A stretch of 62,285 bases of DNA, filler included. It is 11 parts of 11 records of this genome, joined end to end, with 100 filler letters (N's around TTAATTAATTAA, not from the genome) between each part and the next. Parts side by side here need not be neighbours in the genome. Positions count along the whole stretch, not along the records: positions 5,751 to 14,098 come from SRR15195285_5924; 10 more parts are not named here. One strand, 5' to 3'. The translations under genes were made by a program, and so were the position numbers. Below, in pieces: positions 2,883 through 59,356 of this stretch. Under the pieces are notes generated by a model. The model had not been told where the DNA came from, did not search any database, and saw only the letters and a program-made list of their open reading frames with translations. Within the stretch, counting starts at the first letter, position 1. The number at the start of each line of letters is the position of its first letter.

Positions 2883-5213
2883 TCACACCATGGTGGGCTC
2901 CACCGTTGCCACTAGCAGCTGCACTCCGCACAGTGTCTCGCGCTCCATTTTGACGCAGTGCAGGTAGGTGAGAGGCGGGTACAGGAACTCCTGCTCGTTC
3001 GGGTAGACCGACAGAAAAGAGATGTCCGCGCCGCGGTTGATGCAGTTCTTCGTCACGATGCGGAAGACCAGCGGCAGGGACGACGCCGCGAAGTTCAGCA
3101 CCGCCACCTCCTGGCTCGCGGTAGTCGACACGCAGGCATAGTCGGTGCCGCCCTCCGTCATGAACTGCCCGGTGATTCCGACGTCCTTGAGGCCGCGCCA
3201 CAAGATGCGCTCGACGTAGGCGTCCGCACAGGTGGCCGCCACAGCCCGCAAGAGGCGAATGCCGTCGCTAATGAAGTAGGTCGTGGCGGCAAACGGGTGC
3301 GGCCTCTGCGGCGGGTCGGCGCGAAGTGGGTCGTTGATGCGGCTGTAGCTCGAGGTAGTGTAGAGCCGCAGGGCGATGATGTGGTGCCGTCCGAGCTTCG
3401 CTGTCTGGGCGCTGCTGTGTGCAAGCAGCGAGTCGACCGAGACACCGGGGCAGGCCCAGCCGGGAAGTCTGGTGCCAGCCAGTACGCAGCGGTAGTTCGC
3501 CTGGTCCTCCGCGGTGCCGTGCGCCGCAAACTCCTGCTCGATCGCCGCCTCGTGCTGCTGGAGGTAGGTCCCGATGATGGCATCGCTCACGCCTAGCAAA
3601 ACCTTGATGCCGTGGGCGGCGTCGGAACCTTTGCCGAGCCGCATCTGCTTGTCGGCGGCGATGTACTTGTCGAGCATGGCCGTCAGGGGCTCGGGCTCGG
3701 GCTCCGGCTCTGCGGCAGCTGCTCCCCCGGCCACGACTTGAGACACGGCTGTGACTGCATTAGTTTGCGTCATCGGGGCCGTCGGGTCAGCACTGGATGC
3801 AGCAGGAATTTGTTTGCGCAGACGTTTGAGCTGGATGGCATTGAAGCCGATTGCTTGGAGCTGTTCATCGGTCACGTCCTCTAGCTCGGAGGCTTCAGCA
3901 ACACCGAGCTGGGAGAGCGCAACCTCGAACGCGCCGAACTTGTTTTGCGCGCAAAATTCTGTGAGTGTCATAGGGCCAGCCGTTGGGGCTGCCGGCAGGC
4001 TCGTGTTCTGGACGATCAGACTAGGAGATGCAGGTTGCCCGTGCTGAATGAGCGGCGCTTGCAGCCCTTGCTGTTGTTGCAGTTGCTGCTGTTGGTACTG
4101 ATGTTGTGCAAGAGGTTGTGCGAGGGTAGCTTGTGTCCATACTGGTTCGCCTTGGGTTGGTGGTGCTACCACCTGCTGTTGCTGCCAATGTATACTGGTG
4201 GTCATAGCCTGTGGTGGCTGCCCACCAGGTGCTAGGCGAGTGAACTGGTCGATGCGCCCCAAGAAGGATGGCTGACCAGGTACAACGACGATAGTAACTT
4301 GGCCTGTTTTTGGATCGACATCGACCCCCGTGGCGGTGTAGTTCCATTGGATGTAAACGGCTATTGCTGTGCTTGCGTAGATGAGCAGCTCGACGATAGC
4401 CTCCTCAGAAAACATGTGGAAGAACCCGTAGAAAATGCTGTACAACGTGAGGGTTGACCCCAAATACGCCGTGTTCACGATAATGCACACCTTCTGAAAT
4501 TTTAGGAATACGAATCCCATCGCAATTCCTCCAACCACGGCAACAATGCCGAGGCCTTCGGATTGCAGCGCCTGGCTGCTACCCAGAAATACCATCCCCA
4601 CAGAGGAGACAACCAGCATTCCAAAGCCGCAACCGGCGCAGAAGATCACGATGAAGTACATGGCGATGAAACAAAAACCTCCGCACGCGCCCCCGATCAG
4701 GAAGGCTAGGAGCATCATGGCCTCAGGATCTGCTTCGCCGTTGGCACTGGCGCTGATCCAAGCAATTACGCCAGCAATGAAGCCGACAAAAAGGAAACCC
4801 ATTAAGAAGACGACATACTTCCAAAGACGGTATCCAAGCAGTGCAGTTAATAGTCCAATCGGCAAGAAGATCAGCCCGAGTGGCACAGTTGTCGCGTAAG
4901 AGACCGCGGAGAAGTCAATGCTGGGGAGGCTGTTCTGTTCGCTGGGGAGGCTGTTCGCGCCGGTCGGTGGGGTCGGCGGGGGAGAACAACCTGAGCTGAA
5001 TACGCCGTTTCCACCATTGTATGGCACCCCACAGTTGGTGGGGTACTGGATGGCGCAGCCTTCCTTGGTAGAAGCGTGCCCAACAACAGTCGGACTGCAG
5101 CGATATCCGGCACAACAGGTGCACGTGCAGTTGTCGGCATCAACGCTCCCCACAAGCGAGACTAGCACGACCACAGCAGCCTGCCTTGCGATTCGTTCTA
5201 GCGCCATTTCCAT
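2883..5213 (-). CDS. Signal peptide + small Cys-rich ectodomain + TMEM198/TM7S3 (DUF4203)-like multi-TM domain + Gln-rich linker + SAM + C-terminal R-S-E mono-ADP-ribosyltransferase
   Basis: Signal peptide MEMALERIARQAAVVVLVSLVGSVDA, then CTCTCC...C...C...C. A hydrophobic Gly-rich helix series begins GLLTALLGYRLWKYVVFLMGF and ends IVNTAYLGS...VYIQW. SAM-like segment LTEFCAQNKFGAFEVALSQLGV...LQAIGFNAIQLKRL. ART motifs LRLYTT..Y..IN..LR, LWRG (R), CVSTT (S), GADISFLSVYPNEQEFLYPP (ExE). Confidence 0.85.
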   Translation of the reverse strand: MEMALERIARQAAVVVLVSLVGSVDADNCTCTCCAGYRCSPTVVGHASTKEGCAIQYPTNCGVPYNGGNGVFSSGCSPPPTPPTGANSLPSEQNSLPSIDFSAVSYATTVPLGLIFLPIGLLTALLGYRLWKYVVFLMGFLFVGFIAGVIAWISASANGEADPEAMMLLAFLIGGACGGFCFIAMYFIVIFCAGCGFGMLVVSSVGMVFLGSSQALQSEGLGIVAVVGGIAMGFVFLKFQKVCIIVNTAYLGSTLTLYSIFYGFFHMFSEEAIVELLIYASTAIAVYIQWNYTATGVDVDPKTGQVTIVVVPGQPSFLGRIDQFTRLAPGGQPPQAMTTSIHWQQQQVVAPPTQGEPVWTQATLAQPLAQHQYQQQQLQQQQGLQAPLIQHGQPASPSLIVQNTSLPAAPTAGPMTLTEFCAQNKFGAFEVALSQLGVAEASELEDVTDEQLQAIGFNAIQLKRLRKQIPAASSADPTAPMTQTNAVTAVSQVVAGGAAAAEPEPEPEPLTAMLDKYIAADKQMRLGKGSDAAHGIKVLLGVSDAIIGTYLQQHEAAIEQEFAAHGTAEDQANYRCVLAGTRLPGWACPGVSVDSLLAHSSAQTAKLGRHHIIALRLYTTSSYSRINDPLRADPPQRPHPFAATTYFISDGIRLLRAVAATCADAYVERILWRGLKDVGITGQFMTEGGTDYACVSTTASQEVAVLNFAASSLPLVFRIVTKNCINRGADISFLSVYPNEQEFLYPPLTYLHCVKMERETLCGVQLLVATVEPTMV

Positions 5214-5577
5214 TTCGGCCCACCGAATAAGCACCGATACGCGCGGACGCGTCGTCGTCCAGCACACCACCACGCCCGGCCGTGGAAAGCGAGCGCCTGA
5301 GATCGTACGCGAGCACGCGAGCGCGTGGGCCTGTCGCGGTTTTGTCGCAGTGCTCGTCAGCCAGCAGCAGTGTGCTCGCGTCAGTCCGTCCGCGCGTCAG
5401 GGAGCAGGCAGCGCGAGTCGCGCGGATTCAGCATGCACGCGTGCACTATCTACTGTATGCATAATAATCAATATTGACAACACCTGAACGCATGGAATTG
5501 CAGAAAGCAGAAAGCAGAAAGCAGGAAACAAGCCGCAGGAAACAAGCCGCTCTAAATTTTCCACGAGCTGAGATCGC

Positions 5578-5650: not shown

Positions 5651-5750
5651 NNNNNNNNNNNNNNNNNNNNNNNNNNNNNNNNNNNNNNNNNNNNTTAATT
5701 AATTAANNNNNNNNNNNNNNNNNNNNNNNNNNNNNNNNNNNNNNNNNNNN
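5651..5750. other. Artificial contig linker (44 N + TTAATTAATTAA + 44 N). Identical linkers at 14099-14198, 21845-21944, 25568-25667, 32515-32614, 39653-39752, 42938-43037, 46359-46458, 55702-55801 and 58974-59073
   Basis: Ten identical 100-bp blocks carry a six-frame stop spacer. ORFs run into them and are cut (EF-hand, Cys-rich, Myb, kinesin and WW genes). Confidence 0.98.
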
Positions 5751-6298
5751 GCAATTTGCAAAGGTGGTCCATCTCGGGTGGCCTTACATGTTCATCGTAT
5801 CGACACGGACGATCTTGCCAGGCGAAGAGCTGCTCTTGTAAGCCGACCTACTCAGTCAGTAGGTCAGATGTTTCGACTAGATTACTGCTTAGAGGTTGCA
5901 GAGTTGGCGCACAACCCTAGCACGCCCAGCGCTAGCCACACCTGTGCGATTGCCTGCATCACCGTTCAGTGCACTTAGTGGGCTTATGCATATCATCATG
6001 GCGCAATAGGGACTACGGTGAAGATTACTGGGACTGCCGGAGGGAGCCAAGTGCATTGTCATAACGGCCTGTTGGTGCAATCTTTCCAAAACAGTTTTTT
6101 TAGCTCCCAGCTTCGACATGGACAGCGCCGCGGCTCGATTGCAGCAAATCGCATTTACAGCGCCAGTGTAAACTTGCTGGGACGCAGAACGATCATGAAT
6201 GAAGCAATGGCGATGTACCGGCGCACAATAATTGTATAGCTCTGCTGACGCAAAATATGCTCTTGTCCATGTGTCGTATGGACTGGTGCATACATTTA

Positions 6299-7377
6299 TC
6301 ACATGCGTGCAACGCCATTGCACTTTAGACTGTGCGTTCCTGTTTCCTTGTTCTCTCTCGTTGTCTGTGGTGGCGATGTGGCCGGAATAGCTCCGCTGAC
6401 TGTCTGGTCGCCGAGCTCTCGCATTGCCTGCTCATTTTCTTCAGAGTCGAGCGCCAGAATCCATCTCGTCGACTCATTCATCGACTGCTGCACGCCAAGG
6501 GGGATCAAGCGCTTCTGGTGCTGCTGCTGAGGCATATCCCTGCGGCACCAGAACAAATGCACGGCGGCTTTGCCCCGAGTGCCGGTCGGGGATAGATTCT
6601 CCGTGCCTGAGTGCCAGGTGTGAGCATTCATAACTATGCAGTCCCCACGGTCGCAGGTAATCTGCACCTCGGCAGGGTGTGCTGCGCTCGGATCGGGCAT
6701 GTCTTCGGCAGGGAGACGCTGCCACCTGTGAGATCCAGGAACAGCACGCAAGGGACCGGTGATGGTGCTGTAGGGCGCGAGTGCCACTAAGACGTTCACC
6801 ACCCATGGCCCTATATCGTCAGCGACAGCGGAGAAGTCCGCATGCAATGGCTGCCTGCCTGCTGGTCCATCGTTGACGTTGCTACTAGACGGGACGACAC
6901 GCGCATTTGCTGAGCTGAGTTTTAGTCGAGAACCACCGAGGATGAAGGCCACATATTCTAGGACCCCGCGATTGGTGGCGAGTCGCTCAAAGATGCCATC
7001 CTTCCCAACCAGCGCTGCCAGCCGGGAAGTCCCCGCCTCCTGTCGGAACTCGGAGCCTGCTGCCGCGCCTTCTGCTGCCAGTAGCCGATGTACCGCCGCC
7101 TCCTGCGGCGACCGTGCGAAGCGTGCAATATACAAGTCGTCAGTGTCTGGCTCAACTTGTAAGCGATGATGGCTAGCAGCTACGATAGATGCACCGTGTT
7201 GGCTAAGAGGCATCAAACTGCCCGCACCGCTTCGCCCAGCAGTCTCTCGCTGAGCAACCCCTTGACGACACAGAAGCCACGCTCTGTGAGCTGATCGGCG
7301 TGCTCCGATGGGATAGCTCCCTGCAGCGCTGCCAGCTCAGCAGGCACTGGCGCTTCCATTGCCAGCTCAGCAGGCAT
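6299..7377 (-). CDS. Phytanoyl-CoA dioxygenase (PhyH)-family Fe(II)/2-oxoglutarate dioxygenase, 2 exons
   Basis: Exon 1 (7377-7228) reads MPAELAM...EHADQLTERGFCVVKGLLS. Intron 7227-7103 is GTGCGG...CACTGAC...CCGCAG, phase 0. Exon 2 has QPLHADF (HxD), GPLRAVPGSHRW and GDCIVMNAHTWH (distal His). Confidence 0.88.
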
Positions 7378-7536
7378 TGCTGGCGATGCCGATTCAGATT
7401 TACATAGCTAACGTGGTCTTCATGAGCCTTCTTCGTTGCTGTAGAGGTACACGCATGTAGACGGGCGTCGGGGATACGATACGCGCGGCGGCCCGCGACG
7501 TCGACGTGGACCAGGCAGCTCGCGCGTGCCTGCGCA

Positions 7537-7599
7537 ATTGACTGCTGGCAGATTGACTGGGATTCGATGGCCCAGCGTAATTGACTGGCAGATTGACTG
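7537..7599. promoter_or_regulatory. Cluster of four ATTGACTG octamers upstream of the PhyH gene
   Basis: Copies at 7537, 7552, 7580 and 7592, 160-220 bp upstream of ATG 7377. Each contains TTGACT. A regulatory role is inferred only. Confidence 0.45.
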
Positions 7600-7882
7600 A
7601 CGTCCCTCAATAAATGGCGTACTGGCTGGACACAGGGCATTAGCCCTAAAAAGCCCCCGCTAGCGCCCCGTGTCAAGCCCTGTAGCTAGAGGCCGATGAA
7701 GACACATCCCTCTGGATTCCGAGCAACCATTCTTATGGCAACAAACATACATGTATTTGTACGGTAATCGACCTAAACAAGATGGGTAGAGGCAGACGCG
7801 CCGTGAGGTCACGCAAATAGACGGGCTTTACAATGTAGAGTGGCTGATTCGTCTAGCAAGCCGCAAAGAACCCGAGTTTCTC

Positions 7883-10800
7883 TCAGGGACTCTTTGCTTC
7901 CCTGTTTACATTCCAGTTGCTTCTCGCAGTTGTTGTGTGATTGGAGTCCGGACACGCAGGCCCGCTCTCGTCGCACTGATTGTTTCGCAAATATATCCCA
8001 CGGGCACTGTCCGTAAGATTCTTCTTCGCAGGCATGGTCGAACGACCCACTACGATCCCACTAGATCCAGGGCCAATCATGTTGCTCTCGACGACGATGT
8101 CCGCGCCTACGGTAACCTCGGCAGATGCAACAAGAGTTCACCACATCAACCCCTTCACGAAAACAAACGAGCGTTGCGTTGCGGAAAAGTACTCACAATT
8201 AGACTCAGTGCCCAACTGCATGCCCCCGTTGTTGTGCATGCCATTCCTTGCAAAGCGAACGAAGCGTACCTGCATTTGGATCACCGTTCGAATGTATTCG
8301 AATTGTATTTGAGTACAATGGATGGCCAACGAAGACGCAGGCTCACCGATGGCATGACAAAGTCATAGTCGCCGAGGCCACCTTTGTCCTCCACGAACAT
8401 ATTGAAGTTTGTGCTACCTTTAGACTTCAATGCTTTCACGTTGTACCGCGGATTGTCGCCACGGAATTGCCCGTATCCTTGGGCTGGAGCACCTGACTCA
8501 GCGCTGAGCCCCTCGAGCAGATGATTGTCCTCAACTGCGCCCACGCCAGTAATTGATTTGATGCGATGGAGATGAATGTGCAGTTACGCGAGTACTCTGA
8601 CGGCATGCACGAAAGAGAGAACTCACACTGCACGAACCAGTTCAATCCGGCTGTTGTATGAGAATACGCGCGCGCATCCTGCCACGTACCTGCAGGGCGC
8701 GCGTCCCGTGAGAATCCGGGCCTTGCGAGGAGTGTTGGGAAAATGGGGTCTCAAGACATCATGTGATGAATTGCATGGGTGATGTTCTCTGATATGGGCT
8801 CAATGATTTTGAAAAACTGGACTCAAACGTACCTTCGGCCGCAAAACCGCTGTTCCTCCAGGCTGTATTGCCACTAACAATTGCATTCATTCCCATCATG
8901 TAAAATTGAAACATCTGTGACATCCACACTCATAATCAGTCAGCATCTTCCTCTTTTGGCGGAGGGCGGGGCAGTTGTACTTACACCAGCGTCAATGAAT
9001 TGATTGCCAGTGAAGATGTGGTGGCCGTTGTGCGCAACTGCTGCGACAAACGATGTGGCGTCCGGTTCTACATCGAACGGGCGATCGAGTTCGAACTCAA
9101 TCGAGCCGGGGCCGGCTGCACCAAAGGTTTTATTCAAAATGCGCCGGACCTGACCAACGCCGGTCCCATTGACGATCGCAAAATCCCCTCCTATTGCAGC
9201 TTGAGCCCGACCAGCGTAGCCACCGTTGTCGATCGGGTAGTGGCCACCATGACTCCAGAAGCACCCATTCTGAGACTCTTTGGTGTGCGAGCTGTTAAGC
9301 ACTGTCACTGTATTCCCAGATACAGACGCATAGGGGCCCCAATAGCATCCTTGGCTCATCTGTGTGTCAAATGTCATGATCTCGCGATCGTTGCCCCAGT
9401 CTTGATTGAGTCGATTGTTTGACCACAACACGTGCTGCGTTGGGCCTGTGTGCCCCCAAGAGTAATCGGTGATGCAATTACCTCCTCCTTCCAAACTAGC
9501 CGACTGAATATCATTCCCTTCAACAATTATTTGACGCACACCGTCAAGCCATAGTGGGTTCCCTCCGCTATAGAGCCGATTCCGACGCACAAGCCCATAC
9601 GCCGCAGCGCCACCATCGAAATAACCTTCGGCACCCGATCCAGGCATGGCACAGCTGCAGTTTAGCTTGTTCTGGCTGAAGGTAATGTTGGGAGCGTGTC
9701 CGAGCCCCCATGCATACGGGCTCATGGAACGGATCAGGGCCTCTCCTGCGCCGTACAGGTCGCAATCTTCGATCACCCAGTTGTTTCCCGTTACGTCTAC
9801 TACGTAACCGACGTCTTGAGGCTCCCAGGGTGGTGAGCGATGCCCTGCCGAGCCACTTGCCGCACCGTATGAGCTGGCGTTGCGCCCAAGTCCATCCATG
9901 TTCAAGTAAGGGTTTGCACGTACTAGAACTCTACGCATCTCGAACCGAGCCGCACACTGCGTGTGGATCAGTGCTCGATAGTATCCGGTGACATAAAAAG
10001 TCACATCTTCAATACCCCAAACGCCCTGGCACTGGCCTGCATTGGGCGCACCGTAGTAACCACCACAATCATAGTGTATGTACGCATGTGGTGCGGTTGT
10101 AGGACTATCCTGAGCGAACCATATCGCTGTAAGCTCTTGTGCCTCTCCCTTCAGAACGCAGTTGGGCGGCACCTGCAATCCATCTTTGTACGGAGGCCTG
10201 TGCGCATAGTACCAGAACGCCTGCAAGTTCCCCGGCGTGGTGTCCAGCCCCCAATTCCGCGCGTCAAGAGGAGCTTCGATTATGTACTTGCCACGTGGAA
10301 AGTACACGACGCCCCCACCGTTCTTGCCACAGGTCTCAAGAGCAGCTACGACTGCCGCTGTTGCGTTGATGCACCCGCCGGCAGAGCTGGTGTTGCAGCT
10401 AACGACACCCATCTGCGCGACATCGACCGAAAACTGCTTGAAATGCCTTGTGGTTTGTCTCAAGCGAATCGACACTGTTGCAAATAGTTCGAATTACGCA
10501 CCTGCGTGACGTCGTACTGGGGGCCTGTAGGCAGTGCGGCAGTATCAGGCGAGACGACCTCATGTAGGTCAGTCTTGTAGTGAATTGGGTCCTGAAACAT
10601 CGAGATCTGTTCAGAACCACTGTACCCATTGTCGATAGCCAATCTGTACACACCGGGCGCCAGATTCGACGGTAGCTCGAAGAGTGCATCAAACTGCGTG
10701 AAGTTCGTCGCCACCACCTTAGTTGATTGCTTGCCACCACCTTCCTGAGGCAGCAGATGAAGTGTTGGTTTCTTGACTTCTGGAGTTGCTAACAATGCCG

Positions 10801-13366
10801 CAAACTCAGCGGACAGCTGCGACACAGCACCCGCATCGTGGTTGCGCACAGCATGCTGCAATGACCATTCGAGCTCTGCCAGTCGCACATCCACGGTCCC
10901 ATTAGCAGTGGTCAAGGACATCGCCCTGCCCATCACCCGCACCCATCCGCCTGCCGTTGACGTATTGCCTCGGTCACCTTGGAACCACCACGTGTCTGGT
11001 GAGTTGATTGTATAGGGTGCCGAGCCATCGACAGACACAGTGTAAGTATCTAGCGCCATCGTGGCTGGGATCACGAATTTCAAACTCGCTTCTGACACCT
11101 GTGTAGCTGCAACTACAACTGAGTCACCGGCCTCGGTCTTGATCGACACTTTTGGAGCAGCTGCCCAGCCAGACCCTGCTAGCATAACAGTTTCGCCGGG
11201 GCGAGCAGGCTGCGTAGCCCAGAAAATTGTTGTTGCGGCAGTGATTTGGTCATCTGACTTGAGCGGCGGTTTGCATGCAGCGGTGCGTGGAATAGGCTGT
11301 TCGCACGGTCGCTGCCCGGCCTTTGGTTTGTACGACTTCCATTTATCAAGTTGGTTTTTGTATGATTGATCAAGCACGTCGCACCAAGGGTCTTCGAGCC
11401 CCCCACTGCCAATCGGAGGAATGGCGACTCCTATCCCTTTCAGCATCTGTGCCATAGTCTCGTTCGCATTGAGATTCTGATCGATTGCTCCGGAGTAGTA
11501 GGTACCCTCTGGCAATAGCCACTTGATGAGGATAGAATTGCTGGCATAGTAGCCGTTCTCTTTGACGATCGGGATCGAAGCGGACAACACAGACCGGCGG
11601 TCGACAGAACCCTCCACTACAGTGAAGATGTCAGGCCACTTAGAGCGCGCAGCTGCAAGAAACGCCTCCATGTTGTCACATTCAGCTTCATCGAAGTAAA
11701 AACCTCGAACGCCCTTGTTGATCCAGTGCTCCATACGATCAAGATTTCGTTGCAGTTGATTTGGCGGCCATCCCAGCATATCATGGATCCACTGAAAATC
11801 TCCTTTCTGCGTCACCCGAAAACCATCAGGGCCAGTGCCGTACTCCACTGCTACCTTCTTGATATCCCAGGTGGCGTCCCCACCCGGCGCGTCAGGTCCG
11901 CGAGTGATGTTGACGATATCTGAACAAGGGCGTTGGAACCAGAATACGTTGACGCCCGCGTCTTTGAATTCCGTCAAGAACTTTGCCATCACTGCGTCGT
12001 CATGCTCTGCAATATTCGGATCGAGAAACTCTGTTACAGGATTGAACTCGTTCGCCTGGCCGTTGTTTGTCTCCCAACTCGAGAAGAGCGCAGTACCCCA
12101 CACGCCGAAGAGATTCGTACCAAATCCACGTAACGACTCTGCAGTGGACTGTGGGTTGCTTATATTGTACAAACTCATTTGTGGTAACCGGTCCTTGCCG
12201 CCCGCACCAACTCGCCCCGCCTCGTATGCGTTCACTTTGAACGGTCCAGTGGGGCAGTACGAAACTTGGCCGTATGTTTTGTCAAAAAACTGTTTGTACG
12301 GCTCGATTGTCTCTTGCCAATCTGCGGCCGCCGCAAGCTTGAATGCGACGGTCAGCGAGCTGCTTTTGTTGGTCAAAGACATCTGAGCACTGCCACGGAA
12401 GCCAGCCAGATACCCTGAGAACGGGATCATTTGCTTGAAGCTGACTTCCTCGCCCACATCGATCGTATCGAGATACATCATACTAATAGCGACGTTCTCA
12501 TCTGCCATGATATCAACGGGCGAGAATGCACCGCGGGGGTAGGTCCCAGGCGTCTCAGTATGAGTTGCACACATCCCATGGGCATATTTGGACACCGTGC
12601 ATTTCCCAGTCCACGTGTTGTTGTAGCCACCGTAGTCTGGTGCCAGCTCCCACATCTGATTGTGGTCAACATTCAAGCTATCGTTCGCGTACAGGTTGCC
12701 TAGTTGGAGCGAACCTAGAAGGACGGGAATCAGCACCGTCGCTGCTGCGCCTTGCTTTCGAGTTACGTTCATGGTTACGTATATTGTATCACCAGAGAAG
12801 TGGAACGTGTCAGAAACCATCAATTCTTGGGACTCGACTGAGACCACGACAGTGTGTGCACCAGCGTCCACTGAGACTGGGGCCGTCAGCTGCGGGGCAC
12901 CGATGACCTCGTCGACGACCTTTGACCAGTCGCTTGCCTGGTGTGTCTGCCAGTGCGTGCCGCCGCCCATCAAATTCCCGCTTGCCGAGTGCATCCACAA
13001 CTGCGTGCCCGAGACGTTCGGTGCGTTTGGGCGCAAGTCGTACGGTGTGGGGAAACGGTATGACTCGTCCCACAGAATGCGGCGAGAGCCACCCGGCGCT
13101 GTGGTCCAGTTCAACTCCACCAAACGACCGTCTGTCTCGTTGAAGAGATACGACAGAGTGGGGGGCGGGTCCCCACCCTCTTCCGTATCTGTGGGCTTGG
13201 AGCACCCAGGATCCACCGGCCAGTCTCGCAGCCCATCTCCATCGTTGTCGAGCCCGTCGCTGCACGCCGGCAGCGTACCGTCGCGCACCGCGTGTGAGGC
13301 TCCACTGGCGCTAGCCTCCGCCGCGCAGACCCCAGCACACCCAGCCAAGGCTGCCAGGAGCAGCAT
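7883..13366 (-). CDS. Large secreted carbohydrate-active protein (~1650 aa, 7 exons): signal peptide, CSDGxDNDGDG..D...DPGC motif, putative glycoside-hydrolase TIM-barrel module, LKSDD linker, Ig/IPT-like domains, pectin-lyase-like right-handed beta-helix
   Basis: Reconstructed exons: 13366-10502, 10433-8985, 8914-8833, 8689-8627, 8534-8347, 8269-8197, 8106-7883. All introns are GT-AG, the phases are compatible, and the total is 4944 nt. Motifs: signal MLLLAALAGCAGVCAA; KGVRGFYFDE; NATAAVVAALETCGKNGGGVVYFPRGKY (Pectate_lyase_3/GH55-type N-terminus); repeated xxxNxx beta-helix turns. Confidence 0.8.
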
Positions 13367-14198
13367 GCTCTCGTGCCGTCCGCGCGTCCTGCGCCGAAGC
13401 CGTCCACCAGCGCACGCGCGCGCTACGCCCGCGACCACCCGACAGCTATCGATAGCGCTCAGCCCGCCACGCGCGCGCGGACGACCGCGGATCTTTCACT
13501 CGTACGCGTGCGCGCGCGCGAGCTCCACCGGCCGCGCCGTCACTGTATTGGAATATGGGTATTTCTGACTCGGCTGTTCGTGAGTCTGATCATCACTGAG
13601 TGACTACCGTACATGTACTGGTATGTGTATGAATGCATGTACCCCCTTACAGTGCAACTCTATTCTCCCGTGGGAGCGAGAGTTGTGGCCAGGTATTTTT
13701 GGTCCCAAGAACATCCTTTCACTATGAGGGTATGACTGGTGGGACCGGTACAAAATAGATCTATTGTACCATTTTCTCTGATTCAGCCTCAGTGGCGGGC
13801 TACGTGGTTGACTGTACAGTACACAGTCTATCTGACGGTAGCGGAACAGCTACACGAGGTGGTGGTGGTGGCCCTGGTGCGAGGGTGTAGGCGACGCCGC
13901 GGCCGGTGCCGCAGTCGCTGGGGGCGTTGTAGACACAGCACACGCTGAGCAGGAAGAGGACAATCACCTACGGCAAGTCCGCTCACGTGGTGCACAACCT
14001 GCTGCGTGCACTCTCCGCGAAGAAATGTCCGAAGAACGGCTTTGGTCGTCAGCAGCTTGCTTCCGACACAGTTAGTGCAGATTGCCCGTCAGTCGCCTNN
14101 NNNNNNNNNNNNNNNNNNNNNNNNNNNNNNNNNNNNNNNNNNTTAATTAATTAANNNNNNNNNNNNNNNNNNNNNNNNNNNNNNNNNNNNNNNNNNNN

Positions 14199-21843: not shown

Positions 21844-21944
21844 CNNNNNNNNNNNNNNNNNNNNNNNNNNNNNNNNNNNNNNNNNNNNTTAATTAATTAA
21901 NNNNNNNNNNNNNNNNNNNNNNNNNNNNNNNNNNNNNNNNNNNN

Positions 21945-24307: not shown

Positions 24308-26381
24308 GGCAGCACTGGCAGAGTTGCCCTTCCGTCAGTGCCGCCGTCCGAACAAGCCCACGTTGCGCTCAGACCATCAGCTATCCTCACTCCACGTCAA
24401 CTCCCGGTGAGTGGTACACAGCGGCTGTATACCCACCGTGCTGCTGCGAGGAGGCCCTCAGGCGCTGCTCGGGCCGGCCACGGCGGTCCAGCACACGAAT
24501 GACGCTGCCGCTCCCGGGAAACCTACCACCGCATCCCCCAAGCCAGCCCGACGTCTCTGCCCTGTGAACCTCCAACCAACGCGCGGCAGCTTTCGGCAGA
24601 CTCTGTCTCCCTCTCCCCTGCCAAGGGCTACCGTTCTCCAGCCCCAAAAGCAGCAGGCCCAGCAGTCCTGCACCGCCGCAAACCAACCACCACCCAAAAC
24701 CGCAACCCTCCCCACACCCCACTGTCCTCCCTCCCCTCACATCTCCTAGCTACCCATCATACCATCTAACCCAACTCGCTACCCTTCAACCCACACGGCG
24801 ACTCTAGTAAAGTGTGCTGCGCACCCACCGTGATATTGGCCGAGAATGCAACCAAAACCACTGGCGCGACGGTCCGCCTGCCTGTCCAGAAACCACCCCT
24901 ACCGCTACCCTTCAACCCCCCCGACCTCCGCCGCCACACCCTCGCCACTCTCGCTCCACGCCTGCTCTCAGACGGCGAAACGTCCGCGTAACGGCTGTAT
25001 AACGGCTGTATAACGTTCGCGGTGGCCACCAGGGGCAATTTCAGCACGCCCTCCAAGTGCTCCTCAGGGCACCGTCGATTCTCAGTGCATGTACAGTACT
25101 ATTCACACATGTATCGCACACAATTTCGACGAGATGAGGTGGGTGCTCCAGAATGGTGCGATTTTCCGGTACGCAGACTGCGCAAAACTCTGAAAAGAGA
25201 ATTGACCTGGACGGCATGCTGTTCTGGTGGGTGCTGGTCGGTCAAGCCCCCACCCATGCAGAAAAGACGCACTCGAGATTTCCGCCGAAGTTCGGGCAGC
25301 ACCTGGACGGTCAGTCTGCCGGTTCGATCATCAGACACGGTAACCCATTGTCTATTGCTTATTTGTACCGTATCATTCAATCATGTTGAAAAGTTTCAAT
25401 GTGGATGAGAGGAAATCATGATCTGGACAAAAATGCTTCCGCTCGCGGAAAAATGCAGACGGTTTCCGGTCGCAGTTTCCGCTCGCGAGTTCCGCACGCC
25501 GGATCGAGGATCTCAGTGCAGCTTCATGAGTGTTCGTTTTGTGAAGCCAAATGAAATTGTCATTGTCNNNNNNNNNNNNNNNNNNNNNNNNNNNNNNNNN
25601 NNNNNNNNNNNTTAATTAATTAANNNNNNNNNNNNNNNNNNNNNNNNNNNNNNNNNNNNNNNNNNNNCTGCAGTTCTCAGTGAGTTTTCCGTACTCCACA
25701 AGAATCCAACACGGATGTGGTGATGAGACACACTTGAACCTAGAACGTGAGATGGCCACGCACGAGGGAGCGGCTTAAGGAGGAGACGCTTGTGAGCAGG
25801 AGGAGGAGACGCTTGTGAGGCGCTGCTCTGAGAGCGGCTGAGCGCTCTGGCGGCGGGTCGGGAGGACGCGGACGCTGGGCTTGGTCGGGGGGGTAGGTGG
25901 GAGGGTGTGGCCCACTGGCCCACTGGCCCCGTGGACGGCGAGGTTGGGCGCTTGCGATGCGATGGGAGGGAGGGTTGCTGGCTATGGTGGCTGAGAGAAG
26001 CGCCCCTGCCGCGTGTAGACACTGTTGACTGGGCCGCGTCCGGACGGTCTTGCTTGGGAGGTGAGGCGGTCGGCAGGCCCTGAGATGTGAAGGCAGGCTG
26101 GGCTGGGCTGAGAGGGTCTTGCTGGTGTCTCGAGACACTCGTGGGAGCGCCGGTCGACGGAGGGTCCCCGGAGAGAAGCTCGTCTGGAAGGTAGAGGAGG
26201 TGGATGGCGGGTGGGTAGCGGTAGTGAGTGGAGATGTGATGCGATGGGCTAGTGGGCGGTCGTTGGGCCCCCTCGATGTGTGTACACATCCCGGGATGAG
26301 GAGGGGCTGAGGTGGGAAGTTGTGCGTGAGCGGAGTGAGCGCGTGAACGGGGCTGCCTCGGAAAGTCGCGGCACGCGCAGC

Positions 26382-29300
26382 ATGGGGGACGACAACGTGT
26401 CGTTTTCGATGGGAAACTCGTCCACGGAGAACGCCTCCACCCTGTGGCCATCGTCGTCGATGACAGACCACAGCATCGTGCCCATATGGTCGTTCGCGCT
26501 CTTCCTCCTCGCCTACCTCGTGGTTTCTGCGACCATTCGCCGCAGGTACCGCTGGCGGCGGCAGATGATTGAACAGGTACTGAGGGGGGTCGAACAGAAG
26601 CGAGCGGGCGGAGAGGAGGTGCACTGGCCACAATCGCGTCCCGAAGCGGCAAGTGTGCGCGACAAGGACAGCCCCGTCACACCTCCGAAGGACCCCAGCC
26701 CGAAGAAAAGTGGAAAGAAAAATAGCAAGAAAGAGAAGGATGGGCGTCGAAGCAGTTCGCCGAAGTCTCCTCGAGAGTCATCGCTGGAGCGATCGCTCTC
26801 AGAAGACCAGGATCTCGCGCAAGCCGGCAGTCTTGGGACATTTGAAGTGGAAGGGTGCTCCGCAGACGAGCTCCAGGAAGGCTCCACGAGAGCCCAGCCC
26901 GGAGGACCCTCCGCATCGCCTGGGGCAACATTCGATGTCGAAGCCACCCCTGCGGAGCGGACCGCAGACATCGGTGCACCTTCGCGCAGCTCGAGTGCGC
27001 TGGTGCGAACGGTCACTGTCATGGATATGGGGCCAGGTGCCGCGCCTGAAAACGCGGAAGCAGCGGCGGAGATCCGCAGCGAAATCGAGACAGAGCGTGA
27101 AAAGGAGAAGCGGCTGCCTGCCTTTCAGCGCTTTGTCCACCATTTGTCAGGGAATCTAGAGGGTCTGCTGCTCACGCAAGAGTTTGGCGTCGAAGCAGGC
27201 TTTTACCTTGCGCTGGTTTGGATGTTCGCACGATTTGCCCTCTGCTTGTCGATCCTTGCTTTGCCGCTGGCGGCGTTCTACTACCAGTACGGCGACAGGC
27301 AGAATGCCGACCTTTCATGTTTCACTGCAGCCAACCTAGCGAAGGGCTCGTCAGCAACTGGGATGACTGTCGTTGCGGCCTGTGTTGTTCCAGTGCTAGC
27401 ACAGGGCTTGTGTGTGTATGTGTGGTCTCGCCTGCAAAAGCTGAAGTATTCAACGTCAGAGGCACGGAAGGAGGCTTTGTCCGGTTCAACGCTGATGATT
27501 GACGGGTTGCCAAATGATATTACTGCGGATGACAGATTGGTAGACTTTCTGGAGCTCTTGGTGCCGGGGTGGATCAAGAACGCTCATATTGCTTTGGATC
27601 TTGAAAAATTGATTCACATAGAGCGAAGGCTTGCCGTGGCGCGCCACGACCACTCACGGGCCGTGGAGTCAAGGGGCAGTTGCAGTGGGTCTGGCAGAGT
27701 ACGGAAAGCAGAAAAGCTCGTCAGTAAGCTCGAGCGCGAGGAGGAGGAGACGCGTACTACTGAGCTCAAAGGCACGGGGATTGCCTTCGTCACGTTCTTC
27801 TCACTGCGTCGAGCGATGGAATTCAAACGAGCTATATCAGTGAAGGAGGTCCCACGGATATTTGATTCGCCTGACTCGGCGGGTCAAGAGGAAACGAAGC
27901 AGACCGTCGAGGCGAGCGAAGCGAATCGATCAAGCCCGAGCAAAAAGGGTCCCGGAATTTCGCTGTCGGGTGCACCAGAGGCAGAAGAGCTCAACCTGTT
28001 CGGATGGAAGATTGAGGTCGCACCAGATCCGTCGGACATCCTGTGGGAAAACTTGAGAATCTCACCAGAATCGCGGAAGCGACGAAGGCGGTCATCGAGA
28101 GCTCTCCTGCTCTCAATCCTGCTGTTTGGTTCAGCGCTGGTTCTACTAGGAGTGTTTTTTCTTGGCTTCCATTACGTAAATTTGGTGTATAATATTGAAC
28201 CTGCGGCGCATGTGACTGAGGGTCTGTCACAGGTCGGTGATGGATTAGCCGAAGTCTTTGGCGGCGCGTACTGGCTGGTCTTTCTCGCACCGCCAGCGGT
28301 CTTTCTGGGGCTTATTGCCTCCGTGCCGATGATTGCGAAGAAGCTTATTGCAATTGAGAAGCATTTCACACGCTCTGCAGTGATGCAGTCCTACGTTGCG
28401 AAGAGCTTCGCGTTCTACTTGCTCCTCAACCTTGTCTTGACGTCTTGCTCTTGGGTGGTCATCGTCACACAGTCAGAGGAAATGGAAGGTTGGATGTCGA
28501 AGATGCAGATATTTGCTGACCTTTCTGGCACGTTTCATATCTGTGTGGTGCTTACGGAGGCGTTTGTAATGGCACCACACCGTATGTACCGTGGATGGAA
28601 CTTGCACGCCGGCGTGAAGTGCGTCTCGTTGCGGGCACCGTCGTTCCCGACTCCTGCGCTACCTTTCAACCCAACCCTGAAATCGGATGAAATGGACGAT
28701 GATGCGGTGTTGCTATTTGACTTCTCAAAGCAGTATGCCGAGATCTTCTCGATCTTTGCAATGCTGCTGGCGTATGGCCCACTCGTGCCGTGCGTACTCC
28801 CAGCTGGGTGGCTGTACTTCGAAATCTTATTGGCGACAGACCGGCAGGTGCTGCGCGAGCAGTTCGCGAAGCACCGCACGGAAGATAAGCGAATTCGCAC
28901 CATAACATCTCATATTCAGTGGTCCGCCGTGGCAGCGCAGTTTGTCCCATTCGCATTTATCGCAGTGCATGGGACAGAGGTCGGTGTCATCGCGTTATCC
29001 GTGTTGGCGGTGTGGACCCTGATAACGTACATTCTCTACATTGATCATGCGGACAACCATGGGAAGCTCTTCTACAACAAGTTGGAGCGCTGCCTCCCGT
29101 GCGCGGAGACTGGCAGGTCTGCACGCGCACAAGTGGGGATTTCCTTCACGGTCAGCGTCGATCCAGCCAGCTTGCGGACAAATAGCGCCCCAACAGTGCG
29201 TACAGTGCTTTGATGCTTGTTCCTGCCATTTGACCTAGTCTGCCATTCAGAGTTCGACTGCATACTAACTTTGCTGAGGGGTAATTGTAGCGTGACTTTG

Positions 29301-32323: not shown

Positions 32324-32614
32324 CAACGAGAGCGGCAGCGAGGGCGTTGGCCTCCGTGATTTCTGATCTTGCCAACGCAATACAGCTGTACTGTACTGAT
32401 TACCGGTACCGTAGTCTCTATTCATAGTTTATACTGTTTCGTCTACAGGGCCCGCCCAAATCGCGCGCGGCGGGTCAGAGAGGGGCACAGCCCTTTGAGA
32501 TCAATAGTTTGAGTNNNNNNNNNNNNNNNNNNNNNNNNNNNNNNNNNNNNNNNNNNNNTTAATTAATTAANNNNNNNNNNNNNNNNNNNNNNNNNNNNNN
32601 NNNNNNNNNNNNNN

Positions 32615-39652: not shown

Positions 39653-39755
39653 NNNNNNNNNNNNNNNNNNNNNNNNNNNNNNNNNNNNNNNNNNNNTTAA
39701 TTAATTAANNNNNNNNNNNNNNNNNNNNNNNNNNNNNNNNNNNNNNNNNNNNAGG

Positions 39756-39781: not shown

Positions 39782-40393
39782 AAAATTACTTCTCGCAACC
39801 CCAGTCCATCCATCCCCCATGGCCAAGCGCCGGCGGCCAGCAAAAGGTTTCGTGATCCAGTGCAGGTGCTCCTTGACGCAGATTCAATATTGGCGGGAAA
39901 ATTGTTGCTTCAGAAGCTTCCTGCTCCTCCTCCTGCTCCGCGTGGAACTCGTAGTGGTTCCATCGACAGTATGCGCTTCGGAGCGAATACACACAATGAT
40001 TTCCAGGATCGCTGGTCGCGAAATACTACGAGTTTATAAGACCCTCCGTACCCTGCTCCCTATTGAAAAAAATCGCAGACAGCGAGAGGAGAGCCCGTCC
40101 TGACCTGTAACCAGCACAACCTCAAGCTCATTCCAGTAGGGATTTCACCATCAATTTCAGGAGCAGTCCGCCGCCCAAAAAGCAGCAGCGCATTCCTCCG
40201 TGAATATACCAGGAAATTCATATATATCACAATTATTCATATATATATATAAATATCTACTTTTTTGCAGACCCCGGCGACTCCTGGGATCAGTGGTCGC
40301 CCCATTTCTTCCCCCATACAGCTGACTGGGCCGTTACGTTACACCCGCTCACTCCCCGACCGTTATCACCGCTCCGCTGGGCGCGACAGAGCT

Positions 40394-42937
40394 ATGCTGG
40401 CGGCTTCCAGAAGCCGCGTCTGGCGCCCCGAGGAGGACGCGGAGCTGCGGCGGCTGGTGCGCAAGGACGGCACGAAGGACTGGTGCTCCAAGGCCGCCGC
40501 CTTCCCCACCGAGCGCACCGCGTCCGCCCTGAAACACCGCTGGTCGAAGATCAACGAGGAAGGAACGGTTCGGGTGTCTCAGTCGGGACGTGGTAGTGCT
40601 GCTGATCCGGCGTGGCGCCATCCCTGCGCTGAGGTCTGCACCTGTACGAACTACGGCGAGTGCCGGCGGCTGGACAGCGCCCGCAAGCCGCAGCAACGGA
40701 CTGGCCCGGCAGCCGAAGCGCGCGGCAATGGCGGTCGGCAGCTCTCGGGGATACCGGTGGGACACGCCACCTCCCGGTCTGCGCCGTGTGGGTGCCAGCG
40801 CACACCGTGCAGCTGCGACGGTCTGGTGCATGCGCTGTCGCCGCAGCCGTCCGGCTACCGGCACCATAGAGGAGCGCTTGCAGCTGGCAACGACATTCTC
40901 TGTGCCGAGATGACGGTCGAGCAGGCGAAGCTCTACTGCCAGTCATTACCCGCGGCCGTAGGCTTCACATTTTCTTCGACTGAGGCGAACCCGAATGGGC
41001 CTGTGCTGTGCTACTTCAAATCGTCTTCTCTTGCAAACTCAGATCCTCTCTGGCAGCGGTACATGAAAACGTCTGTCGCATCACCAGTCCCGCCGAAAAC
41101 GCTGCGTTCGCAGAATCCCGATCCGATGGCGCCCCGCAAAAAGCAGCGACCGCAGAAACCCGAACCGGCGCCCCGCAAAAAGCCGGTTGCCGACATCTTG
41201 CGCAGCGTTAGAACGAAGCGCCGCGCCTTCTCGTCCGGGAGCGGCGTCCCAGAGCTAAAGGAGGAGAACACGCTGCTTTGGTTCAAGTACATCGCCGAAA
41301 GACAGCGCGTGTACAACTGCTGGTTCAACGGCGCAGGTCATCCCTGGACTAAGGATGAGACTCTCGCGCACGGGAGGATGTGCAACAACTATCGTTTTCT
41401 CGACCGCGAGTCTACCTGGGCGATTGCAAATATCGTCGAGCCGCTGCGCCAACGCCCAGCCGACCTTATCTTCAACATACTGATCTTCCGTTGCTACCTC
41501 AACTGGCACAAATCGATGGAACTGCTCGGCCTGCAGACTGCCGAGGGATTCGACAGAGCCACGTTCGAAGCGAAGCTACGAAAGGTCCATGCACAGCTGG
41601 GGAAACTGTCTAGCGCTGCGTACAATGTCGGCTCGTTCCATGCCTTCAGCGAGGCGGATGAGTTAGTTCAGGCCGAAGAGACTGGTGTAAAACCTACACG
41701 CGCATCGGTGATGTTCGCGCAGCTCGCGCCACTGATGCCAGAAGTTGCACGTTCGATCATGGAGCGGCGTGACTCGTTGCACACATTCAAAACGCTCATC
41801 AACCTGAGAGGTGTCGGACGATTTCTCGGCTGGCAGTGCTGCCTTGACCTGGGTTACTGGAATCCTGCGGTGTACAACGAATCGTTCCATGTCGAGGTGG
41901 GGCCAGGCGCGGAAGAGGGACTCTCTTGGCTGTTCAAAGACACCGGAGGATTAGATCCGATCGCGTGTGTAAAACATCTGGCTTTTGTCCAGACCGCTTG
42001 GTTCGATAAGGCTGGCATCGGCCCTGACACAAGGAGGTCACTTTTTGGCAGTATGCCTCGCCCTCCGATGACAGCTGGCGTCGGCCCAAGTACTGCGGAG
42101 TTCGCGCAAGATCTTAGCGCGATGACAGGACCACTGAACCTGATGGCGATCGAAGGCGCTTTGTGCGAAGGAAATAAGTACTTTCGAGTCCACTACAACG
42201 ATGGATCAGGACGCTTCAAGCAGCAGTACAGAGCCTCGAAGGGTGCCGACGCACGCTATAGGGCTGACTTCAGCGTCATGATGCGCACTCTGTCTAGCAC
42301 CTGGGGCGCTGTGGTGGGACATTCTCCAACGCCGCATGGCACAGCGGCGATCGGGTTTCGCATTGGCATGCAGGCTTCCGCGCTACCGTGCCTTGCGGGA
42401 GGTCGACCAGCGCAGCCCGTGGTTTCAGCCGCTGCAGGGACTGCAGCTGCGAAGAATCCAAAAAAGCCGGCTACCGTTCCAGGTGTAAAGAAGAAGAAAA
42501 AGCCAGGTACCAGGCGCACTGAGGCAGGGGCGAAAGGACCGCGACGGCAGCGCAATGCCGCAGACAAGCTGGGTACTGAACTCGTTGGAGCAGGTGCAGA
42601 GGGCCCGGGACGGAGGTACGATGCGACGGGCAGGCTTGTGAAGGATCCAAGCTTGCTGGTTGGCAAGATGGTCGAGGTTCTTCACGACCGCGTGGCCTGT
42701 ATCGGGCGTGTGTTGGAAGTGAAGCACGTATTCGGAGCCCAGGTGAGGGTTGAGTTGCCAAATGGCACAGTGGTGAACAAGCGCTTAAACAAAATCAAGC
42801 AGGTTGACACGCCACCGGACGATCGGATAGCTGAGGTGAAATCCGACGTGTCGACCCATGCGGTGTTGCAAAGCTTGTGTGCTGACCTGGACCGCGGGGA
42901 CGATGTCGACGACGACGACGACCACGACGACGACGAC
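40394..42937 (+). CDS. Myb/SANT domain + PAN/apple-like module + aGPT-Pplase1 / 5-hmdU DNA kinase helical-domain (HhH-glycosylase-fold DNA base-modification enzyme) + basic NLS region + Tudor/SH3-like barrel; 3'-truncated
   Basis: Myb: WRPEEDAELRRLVRKDGTKDW...RTASALKHRW. Catalytic region ~41273-42190: WFKYIAERQRVY..HPWTKDETLAHGRMCNNYRFLDRESTW, LIFNILIFR..N, HhH LRGVGRFLGWQCCLDL, VGPGAEEGL, LMAIEGALCEGNKY. Then KKKKKP and LVGKMVEV...IGRV...VRVELPNG. Confidence 0.82.
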
Positions 42938-43161
42938 NNNNNNNNNNNNNNNNNNNNNNNNNNNNNNNNNNNNNNNNNNNNTTAATTAATTAANNNNNNN
43001 NNNNNNNNNNNNNNNNNNNNNNNNNNNNNNNNNNNNNACACTTTGTTCTTTTCATTTTGATTTTTAAATTGTTCTTTTCATTTTGACTCATTGATTGCAA
43101 CCCACTGTGGCGTTTGCCTCACTTTTTTTCAATATACTCCGGCGCTTTCTAGAGATTACAA

Positions 43162-46190: not shown

Positions 46191-46458
46191 ATGGGTGCCG
46201 CCAGATCAGGCTGCCTGGGCCCCCTTGCCTGCTGTCGACCTGTGCTTCTTGCTGGTTGGTGGTTGGTGGCCGTGCTGGCTGGTGCGCAGTGCGGTGTGAA
46301 GCCGCCTTATTGGACACTCGTGCGCGCCCGGTGCGTCGATCAGTCCTCAAACTGAATCNNNNNNNNNNNNNNNNNNNNNNNNNNNNNNNNNNNNNNNNNN
46401 NNTTAATTAATTAANNNNNNNNNNNNNNNNNNNNNNNNNNNNNNNNNNNNNNNNNNNN

Positions 46459-55350: not shown

Positions 55351-55801
55351 AGCACCCATCCGGGATTTCAAGCGTCCTAGCTTACCATACTTGCTAACGG
55401 TTGCAAGTACGGGTTTACCCTCTCGTCATATATTGTGTGTGTGTGTCTCTCTCTGTCTTTCTCTCCCTCTCTCTCTCTCTCGCTCATCATCATATCGACG
55501 TGTAGCTAGAACATTTAGCACCGGTGCCGGCACAAGAGTCTGAACCAAACATTGGTTTATTGAAAGCCACTTTTTGGGGTAAGACAGGACGACCCTTATG
55601 GTCTCAGAAATTCACAGATCCCGTCTCACTAACGTCTTGGGAGGGGTCTAAGTGGTACTAGAGAGGGTTTAAAAAGGGGGTGTCCCAGTCCCCCATATTC
55701 CNNNNNNNNNNNNNNNNNNNNNNNNNNNNNNNNNNNNNNNNNNNNTTAATTAATTAANNNNNNNNNNNNNNNNNNNNNNNNNNNNNNNNNNNNNNNNNNN
55801 N

Positions 55802-58443: not shown

Positions 58444-59356
58444 CTTTTCTCGGACAGCAAATGGCACCAGCAGCGGGCCCACTCGCGGCCACGCACGGTC
58501 GCTCGCCAGTGAGTCCTCGGCTCCTCGATGAGGGGCGGCCAGCCAGTTCGCCTCTCTCGGGACCCCCCGCTCTAGGCGTGCTCCCTTCCTGTCCGACGCC
58601 CGTGGCCCAAGCAACGCGTTATAAACCGCAACCCGGCGTTTATAAGCGCTCGCTATGTGGCGCACCCCGCTCTCGAGACTGGTGAGGTGCCTGCTGGTGG
58701 TGGTACTAGTATAATAGCTGGTGAGGGAGACCAGACTCGAAGACACACGTTGGAAACGAAAAAGACCAAAAACTTGTGGGGCAATTTCCGACCACCGGCA
58801 AAACACTCCGCCCGAGCCGGCATACTATAATCTAATATCAATAGTACATGTTCAAATGTAAATCAAGCGCCGGGATGTATTGAAAACCAAGAGGCAAGGA
58901 ACACAGCGCTAAGGGGTTTAGTACCGAGTTAACGAGCTTCCCTATACGAATACGAATACGGTTTGTGCTTTACNNNNNNNNNNNNNNNNNNNNNNNNNNN
59001 NNNNNNNNNNNNNNNNNTTAATTAATTAANNNNNNNNNNNNNNNNNNNNNNNNNNNNNNNNNNNNNNNNNNNNGATTTAGTATGCGACTACTGCGGATTT
59101 AGCGACTACCCGACGGTGGCGACGGTGGCGACTGGCGATCTCATCGAAGAGTCGTAGCGATGGCGATGGCGATGGCGCTGCGGCTGCGGCTACTGCCGCA
59201 CGCTACGCTGAGCTGAGCTGCGAGCACCCACCGAGCGGTTGAAGCTGCGCGGGGCTGGCCCTGCAGGGTGGCTGGGTAGGTGGGGCTGCATGCTCGCCTG
59301 AGAAGTCTTCGGCTGCCGGTGGGTTCGGGCGGTTGCACTCACTGCACTGCCAGGCG

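Follow-up and report, generated by a model that had tools for sequence, protein, structure and literature searches.

The window, a stretch of 62,285 nucleotides (nt), is made up of 11 contigs joined end to end through ten spacers, each consisting of 44 N, the letters TTAATTAATTAA and another 44 N, so that gene order across spacers is not physical. One of the joined pieces (positions 5751 to 14098) holds the whole of a minus-strand gene for a fused enzyme, in which two modules are connected by a short linker carrying the pentapeptide LKSDD. This motif is encoded by CTC AAG TCA GAT GAC at 11249-11263 (minus strand), corresponds to residues 702 to 706 when counted from the likely start Met at 13366, and lies in an open frame of 1011 codons (10460-13495). 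The gene is eukaryotic and spliced, and exon 1 contains a hydrophobic leader, a Cys-bounded unit, module 1, the linker with LKSDD and the first part of module 2. The database copy of the window protein is P0001; a further protein that is >90% identical to it, P0193, carries the source label Picozoa sp. The features of the gene are as follows.

13307..13366, minus strand: probable signal peptide MLLLAALAGCAGVCAAEASA, recognised by reading the sequence rather than with a predictor.
13202..13264, minus strand: CxDGxDNDGDGxxDWPxDPGC unit (CSDGLDNDGDGLRDWPVDPGC), residues 35-55, from repeat matches; referred to below as the DNDGDG unit.
11273..13171, minus strand: module 1, about residues 66-698, from the AlphaFold2 (AF2) model, Foldseek and the ESM Atlas.
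11231..11272, minus strand: inter-module linker KPP-LKSDD-QITAAT, residues 699-712, from the AF2 predicted local distance difference test (pLDDT) and the limits of homology.
11249..11263, minus strand: LKSDD motif, residues 702-706, from translation of the window.
10502..11230, minus strand: N-terminal part of module 2, residues 713-955, with an Ig-like beta domain, a helical hairpin and a second beta domain.
10502..13366, minus strand: exon 1, 955 codons, from the open frame and its translation, with a GT donor just after 10502.
10437..10501, minus strand: intron 1, 65 nt, GT..AG, placed from the sequence and the change of frame, its acceptor possibly 3 nt further on.
8985..10436, minus strand: exon 2, 484 codons, the beta-helix part of module 2.
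8223..8984, minus strand: 3' part of the gene, with small exons and three introns, frame and stop doubtful.

Past intron 1, homology to P0004, P0005 and P0171 picks up again in the next frame. Three more GT..AG joints on the same strand were present in contigs of metatranscriptome run X16 (8915-8984, 8684-8826 and 8268-8344), the middle one with a short side of only 26 nt that contained mismatches. The joined reading of the exons reaches a stop at about 1550, with the frame of the small 3' exons doubtful, and the C-terminal 180 residues of P0004 gave no match in these exons. Intron 1, the 5' end and a large part of exon 2 have no cover from the RNA-library contigs, and DNA carry-over in the libraries is possible.

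In the AF2 model (mean pLDDT, 73.8), module 1 is a beta-sandwich and a barrel, and it closes in a conserved Cys688...Cys698 loop. Against the PDB, Foldseek matched it to chains of glycoside hydrolase (GH) families GH36, GH129, GH31 and GH101 (E values of 2.6e-12 to 3.8e-08; probability, 1.00), with TM-scores that were low across the matches (0.17 to 0.44 on the target); the best match was 9ayu_A (E = 2.6e-12; TM-score of 0.44 on the target; about 10% identity). The ESM Atlas led to DUF6259/DUF5696/GH66/GH31-like bacterial clusters (scores of 0.92 to 0.96), and no Pfam family matched module 1 at its cut-off. We regard module 1 as a glycosidase of predicted GH36/GH31-like (clan GH-D-like) fold. 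The DNDGDG unit matched repeat arrays in many database proteins, with as many as 34 stretches in one protein (50 to 60% identity), and it also precedes module 1 in the homologues P0015, P0054, P0141 and P0022. The same arrangement occurs in homologues whose nearest Atlas clusters are bacterial, and there are hints in the sequences that the unit and module 1 form a cassette of bacterial origin.

Both modules are found separately. A profile-free exhaustive search returned 2815 proteins at E <= 0.001; the best 150 of these 2815 were examined, and many of the 150 match the DNDGDG unit only. In at least 14 homologues the match to module 1 (query residues of about 30 to 700) stopped 3 to 16 residues short of the C-terminus, and P0015, P0054, P0141 and P0022 finish at or soon after the Cys...Cys loop aligned to Cys688...Cys698. 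Module 1 also occurs alone in P0198, in the P0041 cluster and in bacterial homologues; the stand-alone paralogues (P0041 cluster and P0198) stop past the Cys loop and are motif-free, and the bacterial homologues P0035 and P0062 have extra domains C-terminal of module 1. Matches to query residues 709-930, at the start of module 2, began at residues 10 to 30 of short proteins, right after hydrophobic N-termini. Likewise, 24 metagenome loci encode module 2, and in 15 of them a Met-led hydrophobic segment ran directly into it; the remaining 9 were cut off or unresolved, and an upstream module before module 2 was seen in none of the 24. Module 2 stands alone in P0004, P0005 and others as well, while two word-based protein searches for it returned the window's own protein alone.

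In the AF2 model of the window protein, pLDDT values at the start of module 2 were mostly above 90, with strands at residues 713-814, helices at 823-859 and strands at 868-912, and this part was 30 to 36% identical to its stand-alone homologues (alignment A1). Searches by tblastn with P0004, P0005 and P0171 supported both the N-terminal part of module 2 and exon 2, the latter being 29% identical to residues 778-1037 of P0171 (E = 9e-29). The putative beta-helix in exon 2 (PF12708, pectate-lyase-like, related to GH55/GH28) corresponds to a sub-threshold profile match (E = 5.7e-4; 20.2 bits, below the cut-off of 27; 20.6 bits for P0004).

At the junction the protein reads C-EQPIPRTAA-C-KPP-LKSDD-QITAATT-IFWATQPARPGETVMLAG. 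In the model, built on a 42-row alignment, pLDDT was <50 at residues 678-708 and >90 from about residue 711, and homology to module 1 stops on one side of the linker while homology to module 2 starts on the other. Two modules that occur separately elsewhere thus truly meet at the LKSDD site. A preliminary description of the window had placed LKSDD at 11249..11263, between a module ending in a Cys/Pro tail and a second module, which translation bore out; its suggestion that these were apparently stand-alone enzymes is supported by the ends of homologues (at least 14 proteins) and by the module 2 starts (15 of 24 loci). Its figure of about 1650 aa for the protein compares with the 955 + 484 codons of exons 1 and 2 and with the stop at about 1550 in the joined reading. 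It had also raised a position of the motif just after signal peptides. Here the stand-alone forms pointed the other way, going from a hydrophobic N-terminus straight to the domain. LKSDD is the same in P0193 and P0194, both variants at least 90% identical to the window protein; P0193 is substituted at 4 positions that lie no more than 15 residues from the motif, and at none in KPPLKSDDQIT.

We scanned 155 retrieved proteins (165,767 amino acids [aa]) with the pattern [LMIV]K[ST]D[DE]. There were four matches, at position 702 of the window protein, at 785 of P0002 and at 36 and 460 of P0149; all were just N-terminal of a module start, in three clusters of eukaryote-like fusion proteins. P0002, 71% identical to the window protein in module 1, has PLKTDE at 785, between a beta-helix module and a DNDGDG unit with module 1. 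Its N-terminal 784 residues look like a complete GH55/GH28-related beta-helix enzyme (PF12708 match with E = 6.4e-5, below cut-off; Atlas clusters of 640 to 781 aa, score of 0.96). P0171, a longer protein of the P0149 cluster, has its motif sites at 74 and 499. The first of these is LKSDD, whose first residue lies 7 and whose last lies about 2 residues ahead of the point where a GH56 domain is inferred to begin: residues 97-459 correspond to positions 17-330 of 335 in the PF01630 profile (E = 5.8e-45; 154.1 bits versus a cut-off of 23.2), and the module matches the HYAL1 chain 2pe4_A (E = 3.8e-31). By sequence, the first module of P0171 is a GH56 hyaluronidase, a known stand-alone family. The second site, IKTDD, precedes a homologue of module 2, and in tblastn alignments residue 499 pairs with window position 11263, that is, the first residue of each motif, where homology begins. 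P0171 and the window protein are 34% identical in module 2, and their linkers have only the motif in common. Within the P0149 cluster the residues adjoining both motifs differ between members and the motifs are constant. The linkers are Pro-rich N-terminal of the motif and Ser/Thr/Ala-rich C-terminal of it. Three different folds come after the motif, which therefore does not belong to any single domain. P0171 gave a poor AF2 model (mean pLDDT, 51.3; <50 at residues 1-505), with confident structure beginning past the second motif. The genes for P0002 and P0171 were found in none of the viral contigs or prokaryote genome contigs scanned.

All four module-start boundaries in the three fusion clusters bear [LI]K[ST]D[DE]. 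From composition, the expected numbers of the wide motif were 0.0080 in P0001, 0.0070 in P0002 and 0.0034 in P0171, and 1, 1 and 2 were observed. With the window protein excluded, 3 motifs were seen versus 0.0105 expected (Poisson P = 1.9e-7), and none of 3000 shuffles gave more than 1. For the strict form, LK[ST]DD, there was 1 further match versus 0.0026 expected (P = 0.0026). The other 173 proteins (166,651 aa) contained 0 motifs versus 1.35 expected, and none was present in the six frames of 24 stand-alone module 2 loci (about 85.6 kb summed length). Looser patterns added no site to the four in the three fusion proteins, and gave nothing in P0004 or P0005. The motif recurs at junctions in related fused hydrolases from marine metagenomes and is missing from the stand-alone forms examined. 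The recurrence of LK(S/T)DD between concatenated hydrolase domains, which the preliminary description had put forward, was thus seen at junctions in P0002 and P0149/P0171, in a small sample and far above the composition expectation; it did not extend to the window itself, in whose six frames the strict motif occurs once and the looser LKSDE once more.

The reading that we favour, tentatively and at somewhat less than even confidence, is that LKSDD is one case of a junction motif particular to one lineage, [LI]-K-[ST]-D-[DE], and probably a candidate endoprotease site. The motif would lie in short disordered linkers, with a catalytic module starting 6 to 25 residues further on, in proteins that uncultured marine protists secrete and that carry two or more complete glycosidases behind one signal peptide. 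It would be recognised by an endoprotease of the secretory or digestive pathway, which would part the modules after export, the gene then being a polyprotein of digestive enzymes; the putative cut may fall either after the Lys or, as with subtilases that accept Asp, after the first Asp. The constancy of the motif within divergent linkers suggests that it is under selection. A wider claim, that Picozoa-like protists make their digestive glycosidases as polyproteins of unrelated families and that a dedicated protease cuts them at a new [LI]-K-[ST]-D-[DE] site, is possible but doubtful. Picomonas is reported to feed on colloids of under 150 nm by bulk endocytosis (PMC3608682); with such feeding, an exported or vacuolar set of glycosidases would be plausible. 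Literature searches, with subscription journals outside their coverage, returned nothing, among the papers listed, on the motif strings in protein processing, and nothing on CAZymes (carbohydrate-active enzymes) or polyproteins of Picozoa, on glycosidase polyproteins of protists or, of relevance, on GH56 in algae. A paper on the genomics of Picozoa makes no mention of polyproteins, CAZymes, glycosides, hydrolases, proteases or digestion.

Several points weigh against a processing site. No cleavage product has been observed; known secretory convertases have a dibasic or RxxR signature that the motif does not show, and many multi-module CAZymes function uncut. The sample is small (three protein clusters and four sites), and two of the four sites (the window and P0171-499) precede homologous modules, for which shared descent is possible. 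The widening to [DE] was made after PLKTDE in P0002 had been seen by eye, so that the clean test consists of the P0171 sites only. LKSDE at 28677-28691 (plus strand) falls within the RSN1_7TM region of an open reading frame (ORF; 26253-29213) for an OSCA/CSC1-like channel, away from any domain boundary; it is most simply a chance match. In P0198, about 125 residues separate the leader from the DNDGDG unit and contain no motif, and the leaders of the window protein and P0006 run into the DNDGDG unit, again motif-free. Residues 1-73 of P0171, ahead of its first LKSDD, open with the leader-like MSLAIVSRCCFSLLADSARA and could be a leader, a propeptide that is taken off at the motif, or the result of reading through an upstream intron.

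The best-surviving alternative is an ordinary fused CAZyme with a functionless motif, in which the window and P0171 sites were inherited together with module 2 and the other two are coincidence. It draws on the low number of clusters, the partly post hoc definition of the pattern and the similar LKSDE at a non-boundary place, and a single occurrence in the six frames of the window is roughly chance level for one pre-selected match. However, the two sites of P0171, both at module starts, have a chance of about 6e-6 of arising (at least 2 against 0.0034 expected), and the motif has been kept while the flanking linker diverged, at 34% module identity. We consider this explanation rather unlikely, if far from negligible. 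An appreciable but lesser likelihood attaches to a motif that is selected and uncut, serving as a Ser/Thr modification site, as a calcium or docking site, or as a folding spacer for the next module. Enrichment and boundary placement show constraint, not cleavage, and are in keeping with such a role. The motif has an invariant hydroxyl residue followed by two acidic residues, a combination that resembles acidophilic kinase sites, and the Pro-rich and Ser/Thr/Ala-rich linkers are like those of glycosylated CAZymes, as generally known. Against it, stand-alone versions of the same modules manage without the motif, which is therefore tied to the presence of an upstream neighbour and not to the module's own function.

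That the fusion is an artefact of chimeric assembly or of a mis-joined gene model is very unlikely. The window is indeed a concatenation of contigs, and its source is a metagenome-type assembly, but the gene lies wholly within a single piece with its junction in one unbroken frame, the same fused protein is present in two other records (P0193 and P0194), at least 14 runs labelled seawater or marine metagenome contain 50% or more of the words sampled from the stretch, and an RNA-library contig bridges the site. The two enzymes might also be parted in the course of translation or in the RNA (2A-like skipping, trans-splicing, an internal start or an internal intron), but nothing was found in favour of this, and it is largely refuted already and hardly credible. 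2A/StopGo peptides have the C-terminal consensus D(V/I)ExNPG-P, and no NPGP-type motif is present in the linker CKPPLKSDDQITAATT or nearby; no Met or leader follows the motif in the window protein; the RNA-library contig is colinear across 11158-11318 with no joint; and the RNA around the site has an unremarkable fold (z = +0.71), equalled or bettered by 150 of 200 shuffles. The ribosome skipping that the preliminary description had entertained is thus unsupported. An intron with a CTCAAG end just before TCAGATGAC was rejected, as this GT...AG pair, the only one near the site, spans 49 nt, breaks the frame and deletes the Cys loop that is conserved in bacterial homologues.

Elsewhere in the window, the ten identical spacers are at the following positions.

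5651-5750, 14099-14198, 21845-21944, 25568-25667, 32515-32614, 39653-39752, 42938-43037, 46359-46458, 55702-55801 and 58974-59073: spacers.

The letters TTAATTAATTAA in the spacers give stops in all six frames, and several long ORFs end by running into a spacer. Simple repeats, (GA)n, (GAC)n and (GCG)n, are found at the ends of contig pieces (14199-14225, 42908-42937 and 46459-46482), which are probably places where the assembly broke. Genes for EF-hand, SH3, MFS and OSCA-like channel proteins, among others, in other parts of the window also mark a eukaryote and need not be neighbours. An ORF of 837 codons (2883-5396, minus strand) encodes a TM7S3/TM198-like membrane domain, a SAM-like domain and a C-terminal NAD:arginine ADP-ribosyltransferase domain (PF01129; E = 1e-7). 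Another (40253-42985, plus strand) has a Myb DNA-binding domain and a 5-hmdU DNA kinase helical domain (PF18723; E = 1.7e-41), with a hint, from these domains, of base-modified DNA metabolism.

If [LI]-K-[ST]-D-[DE] were a true processing site, one gene and one leader would deliver different polysaccharide-degrading enzymes in fixed ratios, in abundant uncultured heterotrophs. Protist genomes could then be searched with the motif, as a simple rule at the sequence level, for enzyme precursors and for the protease that matches them, annotators should count such genes as several enzymes, and the whole would be a eukaryotic enzyme-polyprotein maturation system that has no described counterpart. 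If uncut, the motif would still be a rarity, a short conserved sequence in the linkers of CAZymes.

The fused proteins share with ordinary multi-modular CAZymes, as generally known, several modules in one secreted chain and short disordered linkers; we know of no sequence motif shared among the linkers of the latter. A Kex2- or furin-type site has a dibasic KR/RR or an RxxR right before the cut. At the four sites found here, positions P5 to P1 read K-P-P-L-K, R-I-P-L-K, R-T-G-L-K and G-Q-V-I-K, with a lone Lys at P1 and non-basic residues at P2 and P4, and a convertase site of this type was rejected, as none of the four has a dibasic or RxxR sequence. The overall plan is nevertheless that of Kex2/proprotein-convertase precursors, such as the secreted KEX2-processed repeat proteins of fungi (PMC6339444, PMC8528282): one signal peptide, several units and a short inter-unit motif for a putative serine protease of the secretory pathway. 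The Kex2 systems release small peptides or effectors at a dibasic site, whereas here the units are whole enzymes of 400 to 850 residues, the motif has a single Lys, a Ser/Thr and two acidic residues, and the cut is putative.

The site of SUB1-type subtilases is given as an aliphatic P4, Gly/Ala at P2, a polar non-Leu P1 and an acidic or hydroxyl prime side (PMC3378952). If the cut fell after the first Asp, the motif would resemble it, with L/I at P4, a free P3 (K), Asp at P1 and D/E at P1'; P2 is Ser/Thr here versus Gly/Ala there, and the likeness is one of pattern only. Phytaspases, described as secreted Asp-specific subtilases of plants that process proproteins (PMC6043521), provide a precedent for extracellular subtilases that cut after Asp, unlike the putative protease in being plant enzymes that act on peptide-hormone precursors. 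Finally, in the plastid polyproteins of Euglena and dinoflagellates, a decapeptide linker stands between units of the light-harvesting complex (LHC), or the cut falls at the Arg of SPLR (PMC3480386). The LHC polyproteins are similar in coming from protists, in having a short conserved motif at each unit boundary and in the known monomeric forms of their units; they differ in being plastid-bound repeats of one family, whereas the proteins described here combine different glycosidase families behind a secretory leader and carry another motif.

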